The notes under the pieces: generated by a model | Database searches by the model: none | Told to the model about the DNA's origin: nothing | The model's input: only the letters and a program-made list of their open reading frames with translations | Sequence record: PQ390715.1 | Reading direction: 5' to 3' (one strand) | From: Escherichia phage SHEFM2K | DNA length: 64,000 bases | Part shown: piece after piece, positions 1 through 64,000 of the stretch | Position numbering within the stretch: position 1 is the first letter of the stretch | Layout: the number at the start of each line of letters is the position of its first letter | Position numbers and translations under genes: made by a program

Positions 1-253
1 TAGAACCAATACGTTCACGATTTCTGGATGTGCGAATGTACATAGTAATCGTATCCCATGAACTTTTAATTTTTTTAGAAAATTCATAAGTTTTATATAC
101 ATCCAACTGAACTGAACCAAAACGATGTTTGGATTTGTTTTCAATTTTCAGTCGATAATTATCAAATTCAACAATTTCTGTAATGTCATGAATCTCTGAA
201 AGTTCTGCAATGTCATGCATGAGTCTCAAAATTTTAGTTCTGATATGGTTCAT
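1..253 (-). CDS. hypothetical protein, 3' part lies beyond window
   Basis: ATG at 253-251 overlaps stop of downstream ORF (ATGA); frame stays open to window edge. Confidence 0.45.
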   Translation of the reverse strand, partial: MNHIRTKILRLMHDIAELSEIHDITEIVEFDNYRLKIENKSKHRFGSVQLDVYKTYEFSKKIKSSWDTITMYIRTSRNRERIGS

Positions 254-828
254 TGTGCATCCTCGAATTTAACAGGTACATGTTCATTAATGAAATTCTT
301 AAGAGCCTGTACTAAATCCTCTAATTCTTTTGTACTGTATTTTAAAATAGTTTTAAAGTGAATCAAATCTTTTCTTTCCATGATCTTTGGAATTTTATAT
401 GCTAACTCTAAACAGCGTACAGTACTGGCATCATACAAAAGGTTTGCGTTGAACATTAGAACATTGTATTCATCAGATGAAATTTTATAATTATATGTAT
501 CAATCACTTCATGTGTGTATAAATTCTTATACACAATTTTATTCTCACTGAAGTTTGAGCAAACACACAGATGATCGTTGTAAAATGAAGAACGATAATC
601 TTGTTTACGTTGTACATCTGATATGATTTGTAATACTGTATATTTTTCTTCAGAATCCAACTCAATGTTAGCATAACTGCTTGCAGTTTCGGATGCAAGG
701 ATATTGATGTTATATTTCTCATTGACTTTAATGTACTGGCGGGAACCAGTATCAGGAATGAACTTAAAACAATGCTTCAGAAGTAATGTGACTTCTTTAA
801 TTAATTCAGTACTCATAGATTCCTCCAA
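250..828 (-). CDS. hypothetical protein
   Basis: 192-aa ORF; GGAGG Shine-Dalgarno upstream of ATG at 828. Confidence 0.6.
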   Translation of the reverse strand: MEESMSTELIKEVTLLLKHCFKFIPDTGSRQYIKVNEKYNINILASETASSYANIELDSEEKYTVLQIISDVQRKQDYRSSFYNDHLCVCSNFSENKIVYKNLYTHEVIDTYNYKISSDEYNVLMFNANLLYDASTVRCLELAYKIPKIMERKDLIHFKTILKYSTKELEDLVQALKNFINEHVPVKFEDAQ

Positions 829-843
829 CTCTATTTAAAATCA

Positions 844-872
844 AGTATAACACACCTGAATGCTCTTGTAAA
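844..872 (-). promoter_or_regulatory. sigma70-like promoter
   Basis: TTTACA-N17-TATACT on minus strand upstream of ORF 250-828. Confidence 0.35.
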
Positions 873-886
873 GCCATAAACACAAA

Positions 887-903
887 AAGACCCATACGGG
901 TCT
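887..903 (-). terminator. intrinsic terminator hairpin
   Basis: agaccc-atac-gggtct stem-loop flanked by A and T runs, directly after stop of ORF 904-1470. Confidence 0.4.
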
Positions 904-1470
904 TTATTTTGGTAAAACACTGTCAATGTACGCTAGAACCTCATCTCGAAGGTACGTTCCATCTATAGTTAGGTAATAGTTCATGGGAATATCACTCCCA
1001 ACCTTCTCATAAATTTTCATACATGATATCACATCTTCATCACAAATGGTACTCAATTGAAAAAGAACTTCATCGGTTAACGGTACGATATCATGTTTAG
1101 ATAGGGGATTTGTATTTTCATTCAACACAATATTAATCAAGTTAGGAGTATTCTTTGACGAAATATAACGATGCTTACTACGAATTACCATTCTCGATAG
1201 TGAAATACTGGAACTCCATCTTGGATCAACATCTTCATATGATAACGATATTAACATCTCGTGAAAATCTTGAAATTTCATTGACGCATAATATGTTTTA
1301 TCCTCACCGTACATACCAAATGATTTAAATTCAATATCCCCCACTTTGTATGTATCGACATCATTATTTGAGAACTTTATTAAACTATTAATTAGTCTAA
1401 TTAGAATATCATCTTTATCCATTCTTAAATAACTCCAAGTGCATGTCGTATAAATCTCTGAAGTCTTCAT
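904..1470 (-). CDS. hypothetical protein, FamA
   Basis: FamA motif DEVLFQLSTI; tandem array. Confidence 0.7.
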   Translation of the reverse strand: MKTSEIYTTCTWSYLRMDKDDILIRLINSLIKFSNNDVDTYKVGDIEFKSFGMYGEDKTYYASMKFQDFHEMLISLSYEDVDPRWSSSISLSRMVIRSKHRYISSKNTPNLINIVLNENTNPLSKHDIVPLTDEVLFQLSTICDEDVISCMKIYEKVGSDIPMNYYLTIDGTYLRDEVLAYIDSVLPK

Positions 1471-1978
1471 AGAAATCTTTTTCTTCGAGAATATTCTTTA
1501 AACTGGGAATCTCTTCCATAATTTCATCTATATCTGATTCTATGAAAAATCCTGATGGATTATCGTAGTTTTGTAACAGATAACTGAAAGTAATAATGTA
1601 AAGAAGTTCATTAGGATTGTGAATTAAACTTAGCTGGAACATAGCTGATTCTAAATCTGATTCAGTACTAAGATCAACCCAACGTGAATTTCTATAATCA
1701 ATTCGTACTTGACTTGTATTTGGATTCCATGTGAAGCAATGTGTACCAATATGACCTATACAACCAACCCTTGTACTGTCTCCGGTATCAACACTGATAT
1801 CAACAAATAGTTCAATACCGATATCGGTTGATGTTACACGACCTTTTTTCAGAAATAAATCATTATCCTTACGAAATTGTTTGGATGAAAGAGTGTCAAT
1901 GATGCACATCAATGTTTTTGCAAATGCAACACAATGACGAAATTCAAGCCTATGAAATTGGTAATCATTGATATTCAT
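1415..1978 (-). CDS. hypothetical protein, FamA
   Basis: FamA motif ESAMFQLSLI; true start probably internal ATG. Confidence 0.65.
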   Translation of the reverse strand: MNINDYQFHRLEFRHCVAFAKTLMCIIDTLSSKQFRKDNDLFLKKGRVTSTDIGIELFVDISVDTGDSTRVGCIGHIGTHCFTWNPNTSQVRIDYRNSRWVDLSTESDLESAMFQLSLIHNPNELLYIITFSYLLQNYDNPSGFFIESDIDEIMEEIPSLKNILEEKDFYEDFRDLYDMHLELFKNG

Positions 1979-61732: not shown

Positions 61733-61739
61733 TATAATA

Positions 61740-61770
61740 GCCAGTACTCAGTACTGGCTTTTCTTTTTGT
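61740..61770 (+). terminator. intrinsic terminator of inter-paralog cassette
   Basis: gccagtac-tcag-tactggc + ttttctttttg. Confidence 0.55.
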
Positions 61771-61804
61771 ATTAAATATAGTATAACAAATAAAGGAGGG
61801 AATT

Positions 61805-62984
61805 ATGTTACCTTTTGGAAGAATGATGAATTATGGGAATATTGCCCCTGGCAAAGATACTGTTGTTAAAATTAATAGTGATGAAAATTCAATAAGCGTA
61901 TTATACAGTGATGGGTCATTATATATGCGTGGACGGAAACCAATTATCAAAAATGGGAGTTACTGGTTCATCTTTTTTAGATAGATGGGTTTTATGTCCT
62001 TATAGTGTTGATGATTTCTGGAGTTCTTTATATTGTACTATAATTAGAACAAAACAAGGGGAATTGTACTATAGTGGAACTAACTCAGTTTTTGGTATAT
62101 CATCTTCTGTTTCAACATGGACTCGTTGTGAATCATATTTTGGATCTATTTCTCCGAGTTCAATAAAAGATATAAAAATAACATCATCAACCAGTACTAA
62201 CAATTCCATGTTAATACTAACAAGTGACGGTCAGTTATATGGTATAGGCATGAATGGTGCAAGTGAATTGGGTACAGCAACTACACCAATTACATCTCCA
62301 CTCTTAATAGACACTAGTGTATCTGCAATTGCATCTAGTGAAATGAGCAGAAACTTTCACTATATAAAAGATGGTATATATTATCGTTGTGGTGAGAATA
62401 CTTTTTATCAATTAGGAACCGGTGATAATAATCCTATTACTACTTTTACTGCATTGAATCTTGGTAGTTCTCATGTAATTGCAGTACAAGCTACACGATG
62501 GGTAACACGTTTGATTGTTCAAAGTAGTACATCTGCTTTGTCTTTAATGGCGGCTGGTTGGAACACACAGTTGACTATAGGTGGTTCTGAAAATACTGCT
62601 ATAATAAGGTCATCATTTACTACAAATCCCTATACCGATATAACAGCAAATTCATTCGATAAACTTTCACCAGTATCCTATGTTAATGCAATAAAATCCA
62701 GTACTAACATTATTAATACGAATGGTAAGGGATATAATTCTAATGGTGCTGGATTAGGCCGCAACGCATTCTCTGGGAATTATGGTTCAATATTACCAAT
62801 AGAATTCTTTGATGATAGTGTTGACTTATCACATGTTGAGTGGTTTGGTACGATTGGTAATGGTTCAGTATCGGTAGTTAGTATAGGTGAGGATTTATAC
62901 TGGACTGGAAACCCTGGGTATTTTACTGAACAAGGTGAGACTGGATATATATATAAATTCAAAAAGTGCATTCCTTTTAGATAA
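61805..62984 (+). CDS. RCC1-like repeat protein, FamE, with apparent +1 frameshift (possible pseudogene or sequencing error)
   Basis: leader ORF MLPFGRMMNYGNIAP from ATG 61805 stops at TAG near 61985; RCC1 body continues in +1 frame (track ORF 61908-62984: GNQLSKMGVTG, RCGENTFYQLGTGD). Confidence 0.5.
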
Positions 62985-62991
62985 ACACAAT

Positions 62992-63021
62992 GCCAGTACT
63001 TGATACTGGCTTTCTTATTTG
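62992..63021 (+). terminator. intrinsic terminator of inter-paralog cassette
   Basis: gccagtacttgatactggc + tttcttatttg. Confidence 0.55.
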
Positions 63022-63055
63022 TATTAAATATAGTATAATGAATAAGGAGGGAATT

Positions 63056-64000
63056 ATGTTACCTTTTGGAAGAATGGTTAAGTACGGGAATATTGCACCA
63101 GTTCCGGTAGTTCCTACAATAAAAGATTTTAAGATTGGCTTTTCACATGAAGTGTTATTGGACAGTGCAGGTGATGCATGGGGTATTGGATACAATACAG
63201 ATGGGCAGTTAGGCTTTTTGGATGCAAATACCAATTCACTAGGTGCGTGGTCGAAGATATATACTGATGTTCGATTAATTGGTGTTACTGCCAGATATAC
63301 AGTTGTAGTTACTAATAATAATAGAATACTATACGCAGGAAATAACTTAATTTCTAGTACTACCACGCTTGGGTGGACCGATATAACTGCCAGTATGGGT
63401 CCAGTTGCAGTGGATAGCATCGATGCATTATATTGCACAGATGGCATGATGCATATTAAAACTGCTGATGGTTCTTTATACGCATATGGACGTAATATGA
63501 ACGCAAACAGTGGTGTTACTGGTGGTGTTATTAGTGTTGCAACTAAGGTTAATTTGCCTTCTGCTGTAAATGACATGCGATATACGTTTAGTTATGGTTC
63601 AGTACTATGTCGATTGGATACGACTTCTATATACGCATGGGGACGAAACACAAATGGTGAATTAGGCCAGGGTAATACAACAGCTATCGTTACACCAAAA
63701 CTATTGTCTGGTGCTTCTATTGCAATGGGTACTTCGTATAATGCTACTGCAATTGTTTCTGGTTCTGCATCGTTAGTTACGTGTGGTGGTCAGAACAGTG
63801 GTCAGTTGGGTAATGGTATTACTACTGATGGTAATGTTTACGTATATGCTGCTAGAACATACCCTGGCGATCTTAATACTATAAGAAGTCCAGTGGATTG
63901 TAGTACAACGTACACCTCTGCATTTATGAGTCCAGATGGTATATATTACACTGGTGCTAACCGAAGCATGTTTGGTGGTATTAGTGGTGCTGCTACCGTT
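63056..64000 (+). CDS. RCC1-like repeat protein, FamE, 3' end beyond window
   Basis: MLPFGRMVKYGNIAP; frame open to window end; GIGYNTDGQLGF, WGRNTNGELGQGN, TCGGQNSGQLGNG. Confidence 0.7.
   Translation, partial: MLPFGRMVKYGNIAPVPVVPTIKDFKIGFSHEVLLDSAGDAWGIGYNTDGQLGFLDANTNSLGAWSKIYTDVRLIGVTARYTVVVTNNNRILYAGNNLISSTTTLGWTDITASMGPVAVDSIDALYCTDGMMHIKTADGSLYAYGRNMNANSGVTGGVISVATKVNLPSAVNDMRYTFSYGSVLCRLDTTSIYAWGRNTNGELGQGNTTAIVTPKLLSGASIAMGTSYNATAIVSGSASLVTCGGQNSGQLGNGITTDGNVYVYAARTYPGDLNTIRSPVDCSTTYTSAFMSPDGIYYTGANRSMFGGISGAATV

Follow-up and report, generated by a model that had tools for sequence, protein, structure and literature searches.

Why should a single hexamer, AGTACT, recur in the promoters, terminators, noncoding repeats, and coding sequences of a phage, and what kind of machinery would read it? 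The question is raised by a 64,000-nucleotide stretch of Escherichia phage SHEFM2K (sequence record PQ390715.1; this whole stretch is referred to below as the window), in which an earlier note, relying on an impression instead of counts, had described AGTACT as pervasive and suggested a DNA-level signal on top of local functions, such as the site of a DNA-binding or modification protein or the result of selection linked to a host restriction system. As described below, the excess is real, and selection acts on the DNA itself. The answer that we favor is a tentative one: AGTACT, a highly iterated palindrome of the RaK2/121Q/GAP32-type jumbo phages, may be recognized by a DNA-binding protein that is a symmetric dimer, accompanies this phage lineage, and gates early transcription.

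Overrepresentation of AGTACT in the window

The hexamer is found 274 times in the window, compared to 20.2 ± 4.2 times in dinucleotide shuffles (shuffle maximum, 29), an ∼13-fold excess, and the octamer CAGTACTG is found 64 times, compared to 0.90 ± 1.04, so the earlier impression of enrichment was correct. Markov models of orders 1, 2, and 3 predict 20.3, 52.1, and 114.8 copies of AGTACT and 0.8, 3.3, and 8.6 copies of the octamer, respectively; an excess thus remains even under the order-3 model, the check that the note had proposed, although this model absorbs much of the signal already because it is built from AGTA, GTAC, and TACT. In a k-mer ranking, the fold excess over composition rises from 3.3 for GTAC to 12.5 for AGTACT and 96 for CAGTACTG. 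Variants of AGTACT with one mismatch rank far lower than the palindrome, those at the outer positions (TGTACT and AGTACA) being 3.8-fold over composition and those at the central positions falling below it (AGAACT, 0.45-fold; AGGACT, 0.44-fold). The selected word is the palindrome itself.

The window is a junction in a genome of the Asteriusvirus (G17/121Q/PBECO4-like) type. By megablast, it belongs with the E. coli jumbo phages of the Asteriusvirus group (PBECO4, 121Q, phAPEC6, and G17), and its first 25 kb are 99.4% identical to positions 321,465 to 346,472 of G17. When mapped on G17, it consists of the right end of the unique region (1-28,293), a single copy of the direct terminal repeat of ∼20 kb (19.8 kb; 28,294-48,090, minus strand), and the left end of the unique region (48.1-64 kb), which includes RCC1-like paralogs on the plus strand. 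The repeat is present at both genome ends in G17, and a 20,668-bp terminal repeat has been determined experimentally, with PhageTerm, in the related phage Sharanji (PMC11895373). The genes to the left of ∼53.2 kb are on the minus strand and run out of the terminal repeat into the unique region. Genes are simple open reading frame (ORF) calls that agree with the annotation of G17, and the promoters, terminators, and starts of transcription were predicted from the sequence. Rfam and tRNA scans of the window gave no matches. The 30- to 64-kb part also has short megablast matches of 80 to 90% to unrelated phages (Campylobacter, Phapecoctavirus, Justusliebigvirus, Acinetobacter, and others).

Approximately 185 of the sites are in coding DNA (3.5 per kb) and 87 in intergenic DNA (7.9 per kb), where ∼0.3 per kb would be expected, and their nearest-neighbor spacing is close to random (coefficient of variation, 1.14). 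The terminal repeat has the highest density (138 sites, ∼7 per kb). Relative to composition, AGTACT is 11.7-fold enriched in the segment 1-13.3 kb, 19-fold in 21.0-23.4 kb, 20.9-fold in 28.4-49 kb, and 12.1-fold in 49-64 kb. All the contexts that had been listed for it (next to the −35 element, in promoter spacers, in terminator stems, as tandem units, and in coding sequence) do occur, but the motif is not ubiquitous: the blocks at 13.3-21.0 kb and 23.4-28.4 kb contain no AGTACT at all.

Selection on the palindrome in coding DNA

Coding regions contain 186 copies of AGTACT, compared to 61 ± 6 when synonymous codons are shuffled within genes and 25 ± 5 when codon order is shuffled. The copies occur in all frames (77, 42, and 66 in frames 0, 1, and 2, encoding Ser-Thr, x-Tyr-x, and Val-Leu, respectively), and 77 of the 149 Ser-Thr pairs are spelled AGTACT (20 expected). 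In addition, the dipeptides ST, VL, QY, and EY are 1.5 to 1.8 times too frequent, whereas the reversed pairs TS and LV are not. Taken together, the dipeptide and codon biases mean that this word influences which codons are used and also which amino acids are encoded. In G17, the replication genes carry 90 copies, compared to 30.5 in synonymous shuffles, the structural genes 136 compared to 39.5, and the block at 242-320 kb 198 compared to 48.4; conserved G17 genes are 3 to 4 times above the shuffles. These results, together with the genome- and clade-wide spread described below, uphold the proposed DNA-level signal: selection acts on the DNA itself, on top of local functions.

The sites are evenly distributed along genes, and those in coding DNA lack any promoter context. 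Their sole flank preference is for C at position −1 and G at position +1 (∼48% each); position −1 is C in 45 to 48% and G in 7% of the sites, and in every lineage G is the rarest base there (6 to 9%). Beyond ±1, the flanks carry little information genome-wide. Nonpalindromic half-sites show no bias between the sense and antisense strands across the genome (389 versus 429). Individual AGTACT sites are modestly more conserved than other hexamers, with evident turnover: the conserved fraction is 0.70 to 0.82 in the comparison with phage UE-S1 (0.65 to 0.66 for control hexamers) and 0.905 to 0.935 in the comparison with G17 (0.815 for controls).

Distribution among phage genomes

The same signature extends over the whole 371-kb genome of G17, which has 1,034 AGTACT sites (127 expected) and 232 copies of CAGTACTG (3.7 expected); all of its 5-kb bins are enriched except for two blocks. 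Other genomes were sampled at 25 to 50 kb each and Salmonella phage Munch at 100 kb. The first and last 50 kb of Munch carry 205 and 138 AGTACT sites, Klebsiella phage RaK2 carries 167, and Cronobacter phage GAP32 carries 253 (17 expected per 50 kb in each case), while 25 kb of structural genes of XbC2, a Xanthomonas phage according to its record, have 59 (7.3 expected). The enrichment, 8- to 15-fold in G17 and these four phages, spans genera whose DNA no longer aligns. In contrast, 50 kb of T4, a phage with the same host and the same 34% GC content, have 12 sites (17 expected; 0.7-fold), and 50 kb of E. coli K-12 have 3 (11.6 expected; 0.26-fold). A total absence of GCGC accompanies the AGTACT enrichment in every clade sample (0 copies in G17, with 322 expected; 0 in Munch, RaK2, and GAP32; 0 in XbC2, with 25 expected), compared to normal frequency in T4 (1.05-fold) and 1.6-fold in K-12. 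The window itself is likewise free of GCGC, as well as of GGTACC, CGTACG, and numerous 6-mer palindromes that are rich in GC.

Scanning viral contigs for paired octamers also revealed an unrelated ∼33-kb family (42% GC, lambda-type terminase, J-like tail tip) that constitutes a prophage in Leclercia chromosomes (loci L132 and L133) and is also represented at loci L113 and L022 and ∼20 other IMG/VR loci. This prophage carries ∼4 AGTACT per kb with the same C/G flank preference (60% and 61%), an ∼12-fold excess of CAGTACTG, and no GCGC, whereas the host DNA just outside it has no AGTACT and 9 to 13 GCGC per kb. This contrast shows the signature to be a trait of particular mobile elements; neither the host genomes nor a mutational process acting throughout the host accounts for it. 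A search for genes shared between G17 and the prophage, as possible readers of the palindrome, found only lysozyme, and Pfam recognized only the terminase among the ORFs analyzed as nonstructural. An AGTACT-rich, GCGC-free signature in an unrelated prophage hints at a common selective agent acting on the mobile DNA of Enterobacterales.

These comparisons do not support the earlier suggestion of selection linked to host restriction. AGTACT is identical to the target of restriction-modification systems of the ScaI/Eco255I type. However, restriction targets are depleted in phages, as GCGC, GGTACC, and CGTACG are here, while AGTACT is enriched 8- to 20-fold, tracks the phage lineage across hosts, and is not enriched in host DNA or T4; no cognate enzyme was found in the window. 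AGTACT is not a restriction target under avoidance.

An ACT-free operon and a second motif-free domain

The most informative features of the window, missed by the earlier note, are its motif-free domains and a strand-specific ban on the trinucleotide ACT. The first domain is a transcription unit (13352..20991, minus strand) whose sense strand lacks ACT throughout its 7,640 nt, where 115 would be expected from its own composition, ∼148 from that of the neighboring block, and 40.7 ± 5.2 from shuffling of its own synonymous codons. The ban covers all frames and the intergenic DNA; of all k-mer gaps across the G17 genome, it is the strongest (score of 150, compared to 37 for the next unrelated case). 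The unit comprises ∼18 diverse genes of no known function; Pfam and PHROGs searches with its proteins returned nothing functional, and a related-locus search with one of them reached only a 121Q-like contig. A sigma70-type promoter (TTGACA-17 nt-TATAGT) is predicted at 21490..21518 on the minus strand. The last upstream ACT sits between its −10 element and the predicted start, followed by just two ACTs, both in CAGTACT, before position 20991. The 3′ border zone (13352..13597, minus strand) contains a G-rich hairpin and AAAAAAATTTCCGCT, an element also seen at the 3′ border of a corresponding block in Munch. Given borders at a predicted promoter and at a hairpin-rich intergenic zone, the ACT-free block behaves like a transcript.

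The palindrome is still wanted within this unit, where it survives solely as sense AGTACA (TGTACT on the antisense strand), with 42 copies, 16-fold over composition. In a further comparison, AGTACA is found 39 times, against 12.4 ± 2.8 expected, and the positive selection involves all three frames. The antisense strand keeps GTACT at its usual enriched density (43 copies).

Counterparts of the block are present in G17 (334816-342463; 7,649 nt), 121Q (7,511 nt, 93.8% identity), and slurp01 (8,212 nt). When the 401 substitutions between the window and 121Q were placed randomly, 17.8 ± 4.2 ACTs appeared (minimum of 6 in 500 trials), compared to 0 and 1 observed, which indicates that purifying selection continues to maintain the ban. 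The constraint could be looser in the lineage of UE-S1, the most diverged Asteriusvirus sampled (∼90% identity), whose block is leaky, with 18 ACTs in 7 kb (13000-20000). A recent-duplication origin of the block is ruled out by the diversity of its genes and by this simulation, and a sequencing or assembly artifact is ruled out by its presence in independent GenBank genomes.

The second domain, an array of ∼22 tandem paralogs of ∼70 amino acids (23437..28424, minus strand), adjoins the terminal repeat. It has no AGTACT, a GTAC frequency 0.7 of that expected, and only a few half-motifs, all on the sense strand. In Munch, whose DNA no longer aligns with the window, an ACT-free block at 25,613-27,566 (42 ACTs expected) ends at the same AAAAAAATTTYCGCT element as the block in the window, and the order inward from the repeat is also the same: a sense-only domain (21-23 kb), a short normal stretch, and the ACT-free block. 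No ACT-free block was found in the 50 kb sampled from either RaK2 or GAP32.

To our knowledge, a natural multigene unit in which a trinucleotide is banned from one strand under ongoing selection is unprecedented. Such a ban implies an activity, an RNase or a single-stranded-DNA enzyme, that reads three nucleotides on a specific strand early in infection; this activity would be relevant to the biology of phage takeover and could possibly furnish a new sequence-specific tool.

As a side observation, the G17 annotation includes, at 77934-82176, a tRNA-Ser (anticodon ACT, reading AGU) and a tRNA-Thr (anticodon TGT, reading ACA). AGTACT and its substitute AGTACA use these very codons, so the pair may reflect co-adaptation of translation to the motif.

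Promoters, terminators, and noncoding elements

The terminal repeat is organized into single-gene early cassettes, each with a promoter, a 5′ stem-loop, a small gene, and sometimes a terminator. In 15 predicted promoters on the minus (gene) strand (29203..46470), AGTACT abuts the −35 element within AAAGTACTTGCA, which puts the site at approximately −40 to −35. The respective 12-mers start at 29203, 30713, 31048, 31905, 34627, 38301, 40643, 40962, 42511, 43295, 43960, 44762, 45321, 45999, and 46459. Another 10 copies, also on the minus strand and of the general form AGTACTG(T/G)(A/C)TAAT, abut a predicted −10 element as AGTACTGTATAAT or AGTACTGGCATAAT, with the site at approximately −19 to −14; nine of these lie within 31574..47710 (starting at 31574, 34148, 35458, 37260, 37842, 38866, 42488, 43272, and 47698), and the tenth is at 10963. 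Some promoters hold both sites at a spacing of 22 bp, which would place them on one face of the helix.

Outside the repeat, four predicted terminator hairpins of the form GCCAGTAC-N3-GTACTGGC start at 58047, 59257, 60477, and 61740 (58047..61758, plus strand), 3′ of the RCC1-like paralog genes; equivalent terminators are annotated in G17. A tandem array at 46510..46554 has 3.5 copies of the unit AGTACTATTATTC with a period of 13. The 1.3-kb noncoding stretch at the inner end of the terminal repeat (47064..48383) contains 13 AGTACT sites, 8 of them as full octamers, and here the motif grows to a 12- to 14-bp palindrome, (A)TTCAGTACTGAA(T). With at most one mismatch, the 12-mer TTCAGTACTGAA is found 25 times in the window, compared to 0.22 expected.

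The terminal repeat has several other recurrent elements. A stem-loop of the type GGGGAGAATAGTTCTCCCC follows most of its promoters in the 5′ untranslated region, and a noncoding unit of ∼100 nt consists of AAAAAGGGATTGACTCCGGTCAGTCCCTTTGCTATTATATA and, some 18 to 22 nt further on, AGCCCACAGGGTGCATAA; neither has a match in Rfam. Noncoding repeats are scattered over 28.4-48 kb, e.g., at 29548-29792, 31905-32049, 34455-34769, and 38290-38661. The Chi sequence (GCTGGTGG) is found 11 times in the window (∼0.1 expected per strand), including 9 copies on one strand within the repeat (minus strand, 29655, 29878, 31456, 32863, 34663, 35581, 37043, 41032, and 47494; plus strand, 47506 and 53507), which suggests polar protection of the genome ends from RecBCD. 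Proteins encoded in the repeat include a GNAT acetyltransferase (35760-36116), a DksA/TraR-type zinc-finger protein (36180-36437), which is a possible binder of the RNA polymerase secondary channel, and a weak protein kinase match (32050-32691).

A dimeric DNA-binding protein as the proposed reader

In the mechanism that we tentatively favor, selection on double-stranded DNA keeps AGTACT at ∼3 sites per kb genome-wide and ∼7 per kb in the terminal repeat, preferably in the form CAGTACTG, extending to TTCAGTACTGAA in noncoding DNA. With a site at one or both fixed positions in ∼25 early sigma70-type promoters of the terminal repeat, occupancy would change the access of RNA polymerase, and early transcription would be gated, most simply shut off. 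Inside genes, the ∼1,000 copies would work together and not singly, coating or marking the phage DNA in a manner that depends on their density. We infer that the reader would be a phage-encoded protein dimer.

Several observations argue for such a reader, among them the DNA-level excess in coding sequence, the fixed promoter positions, and the tie of the enrichment to the phage lineage. The half-sites have no strand bias, which favors a reader of the duplex over a signal in mRNA. Tolerance of the outer variants, depletion of the central ones, extension of the palindrome to 12 to 14 bp, and selection for AGTACA under the ACT ban point to a graded, operator-like site; a sharp enzyme site would not explain AGTACA. 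The modest conservation of individual sites and their even spread along genes fit a collective, density-type selection.

The confidence in this reading is limited by the fact that no reader protein was identified, and other points also weigh against it. The search that the earlier note had proposed, for a cognate methyltransferase or binding protein, yielded the former only in the sense that an N6-adenine methyltransferase conserved across the clade was found; no DNA-binding domain was detected in ∼40 proteins of the terminal repeat or in 11 different proteins of the ACT-free unit and its first two genes. The core, with flanks that are nearly uninformative beyond ±1, is a sharp-edged 6-bp word that would also fit a methyltransferase or a nuclease. 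The Leclercia prophage has the palindrome yet shares only lysozyme with G17, so a single shared phage-encoded reader is not evident. The adjacent strand-specific ACT ban shows part of this word to be read also by some process that treats the strands separately. Finally, we know of no clear precedent for a repressor with ∼1,000 intragenic sites.

Alternative explanations

An unlikely alternative, although the one that parallels HIP1 most closely, is that AGTACT or its GTAC core is the target of the clade-conserved orphan N6-adenine methyltransferase or of the Dcm-type methyltransferase, which would make it an epigenetic self-mark for protection, repair or recombination, or packaging. The N6-adenine methyltransferase gene lies next to a cytidylyltransferase gene and is conserved in G17, Munch, RaK2, and GAP32 (TIGR01712, 91.5 bits, which is below the cutoff of 97.05), and a Dcm-family enzyme is also encoded in G17. 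The sharp 6-bp core seen genome-wide would suit such an enzyme, and the cyanobacterial palindrome HIP1 has been tied to orphan methyltransferases that read its internal sequences (PMC4390886). However, the selection for AGTACA/TGTACT in the ACT-free operon and the enrichment of outer variants elsewhere would be unexpected for an exact enzyme site, and methylation alone leaves the fixed promoter positions unexplained. No methyltransferase was found in the 10 scanned nonstructural ORFs of the Leclercia prophage, the rest of which is largely structural.

It is rather unlikely that the selected element is (A)GTACT on each single strand, with the palindrome serving to put it on both. Such an element could be an RNA cleavage site of an endoribonuclease with ACU as its minimal target or a start site of a T4-type primase (template 5′-ACT-3′ with a cryptic 3′ T and the primer pppGUACU). 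The ACT-free unit, with its clean sense strand and 43 GTACT copies on the antisense strand, is what this proposal would explain, as is the opposite polarity of the adjacent domain and the same order of the two in Munch. Alternatively, for a strand-polar element such as a primase start site, both domains would fit replication forks that converge toward 21-23.4 kb. The G17 annotation includes a gp61-type primase (with no NCBIfam match), and the terminal repeat encodes a RelE/YafQ-like toxin. The T4 primase recognizes GTT and GCT with a cryptic 3′ T; by analogy, ACT or AGTAC|T might fit the same rule. Yet genome-wide there is no bias between the sense and antisense strands for ACT (6,639 versus 6,497) any more than for the half-sites, enrichment of a cleavage site in the sense mRNAs of late structural genes would be hard to explain, and a trinucleotide start site requires no enrichment. 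Both the palindrome and the toxin gene occur in RaK2 and GAP32, where the 50 kb sampled from each contain no ACT-free block, and the lambda-type Leclercia prophage has the palindrome with no protein other than lysozyme in common with G17.

The toxin-like protein deserves a separate description. It is an 84-amino-acid member of the RelE/ParE superfamily (33,216-32,962, minus strand) and provides the sole relevant match among ∼40 screened proteins of the terminal repeat (PF24732, ParE_like, 42.6 bits against a cutoff of 24.4). Its best fold matches are the mRNA endonucleases YoeB, RelE, HigB, and YafQ (RelE-type microbial RNase fold), and its homologs in Klebsiella phages Muenster and K64-1 are annotated as “YafQ-like ribonuclease toxin.” With regard to the split between the RNase branch and the ParE gyrase-poison branch, its invariant residues (E70, H71, Y74, R57, and K46) resemble in type the Glu/Arg/His/Tyr set of YoeB. 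The gene is present in 69 genomes of the clade, within the repeat wherever the repeat is annotated. With respect to a cognate antitoxin gene alongside it, the ORF downstream overlaps it only when read from a TTG start; its likely ATG is ∼53 nt downstream.

This protein is a candidate for an ACU-specific endoribonuclease behind the ACT ban, which makes an RNase-immune operon plausible. One could then imagine a natural counterpart of “single-protein production,” in which an immediate-early RNase from the terminal repeat would cut RNA at ACU, best at (AG)UACU, destroying host transcripts and the immediate-early transcripts of the phage while the ACU-free operon stays translated; the palindrome would make all other phage RNAs, sense and antisense, cleavable on demand. 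This scheme appears rather improbable; in its weaker version, the immunity of the operon alone would hold, and the palindrome would have a separate, DNA-level reader. MqsR, of the RelE superfamily, cuts GCU; an enterobacterial plasmid toxin, Kid, cuts UU^ACU; and a review of known toxins lists no ACU-only enzyme, with Kid (UU^ACU) and ChpBK (ACY) as those with ACU-containing targets (PMC5408214). The scheme resembles ACA-less mRNAs, which remain translatable under MazF, as the 3-nt word of the RNase is missing from them in every frame (PMC5408214, PMC9102682), but those mRNAs were engineered, whereas the ACT-free unit is natural and comprises 7.6 kb and ∼18 genes. It is weakened by the fact that RelE-type enzymes (RelE, YoeB, and YafQ) usually act on the ribosome and read codons in frame, which would not alone demand the out-of-frame avoidance seen here. 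The co-occurrence of the gene and the block gives no support either: UE-S1 has a leaky block yet an intact gene, and the gene is clade-wide, while the block was seen only in Asteriusvirus and Munch-like phages and not in the 50 kb sampled from RaK2 or GAP32.

It is very improbable that AGTACT is a functionless by-product, whether of repeats and paralogs, of codon or amino acid usage, or of a neutral drive in mutation or repair (e.g., biased repair of the very-short-patch type). The window is indeed full of paralog families and cassette repeats, and site conservation is only modestly above the background. Some site differences between genomes are common to tandem paralogs, which points to concerted evolution; the recurrent AGAACT/AGTACT differences from UE-S1, for example, are homologous positions in such paralogs. 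However, the paralogs are just ∼35% identical, and the excess persists in single-copy conserved genes, after synonymous shuffling, and across genera that do not align, so that repeats and paralogs are ruled out as its cause and the shuffles largely refute the by-product explanation as a whole. Under a conversion drive, some near-cognate word should be strongly depleted, and none is; the host DNA in the same cell as an enriched prophage is not enriched; and under the ACT ban, selection favors AGTACA in all frames.

The weakest proposal, that the sites serve the host division inhibitor SlmA, which would be activated or titrated during infection, draws on the AGTACT core of the SlmA consensus GTGAGTACTCAC and on the same palindrome in an unrelated enterobacterial prophage but is ruled out by the flanks, since SlmA requires G1, T2, and a purine at position 3 (PMC3020112), there are no strict sites in the window or in G17 (and half-matches at only 22 of 1,034), G is the least used base at −1 in all lineages, and the signature persists in a Xanthomonas phage. 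A likeness to LexA and TrpR half-sites was considered and dropped because spacing and orientation do not fit.

Comparison with known systems

Literature searches on AGTACT or CAGTACTG in phages, on PBECO4 promoter motifs, and on Asteriusvirus found nothing on this motif (only primer sequences came up for CAGTACTG), and no report of an iterated, HIP1-type palindrome in a virus was found. Nor did we find a natural precedent for the strand-specific trinucleotide ban to which the palindrome is coupled.

Several other words in cellular genomes differ in symmetry or in flanks. The DNA uptake sequences (DUS) and uptake signal sequences (USS) of Neisseria and Haemophilus, as well as Chi and KOPS-type words, have a density of ∼1 per kb, lie within coding DNA and, as inverted pairs, in the stems of terminators, and are read by proteins as a mark of “own” DNA. 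In contrast to the palindromic AGTACT, these words of cellular genomes lack symmetry and are strand-polar, and their readers are known (ComP, RecBCD, and FtsK). SlmA offers the likeness of a palindromic operator with an AGTACT core that is bound by a dimeric TetR-family protein and scattered outside promoters (PMC3020112); the flanks that it requires are absent from the phage sites, and the resemblance is limited to the core.

The best comparison is with HIP1 (GCGATCGC), the highly iterated palindrome of cyanobacteria (PMC5861425, PMC4390886). Like CAGTACTG, HIP1 is an 8-bp palindrome that exceeds expectation by tens to hundreds of fold and occurs both between genes and, in all frames, within them; it is kept by selection and not by codon use, its one-mismatch variants are nonrandom, orphan methyltransferases are encoded in the same genomes, and its function is unresolved. 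AGTACT fits the description of this type of word: its octamer is enriched well beyond ∼15-fold (64 versus 0.9 in the window and 232 versus 3.7 in G17), it occurs in all frames and in noncoding DNA, and it is independent of codon use. The differences are that AGTACT is carried by a virus lineage and one prophage instead of a cellular phylum, the host genome being without it; that CAGTACTG is AT-rich, with copies in promoters, terminator stems, and a tandem array and with weaker conservation of individual sites; and that in the jumbo phages the link between a methyltransferase and its target is a candidate only. HIP1-type palindromes have gone unexplained for ∼30 years in cyanobacteria, which are slow and genetically awkward. 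The same phenomenon is now seen in cultivable phages of E. coli, Salmonella, Klebsiella, and Cronobacter, whose genomes carry ∼1,000 sites each, some of them at fixed places in early promoters, and contain natural “knockout” domains, which makes the question directly testable. Together, the palindrome and the ACT-free operon point to sequence-reading machinery across a clade of giant phages, and AGTACT is best read as the phage counterpart of HIP1, a virus-borne iterated palindrome that has been integrated into promoters.

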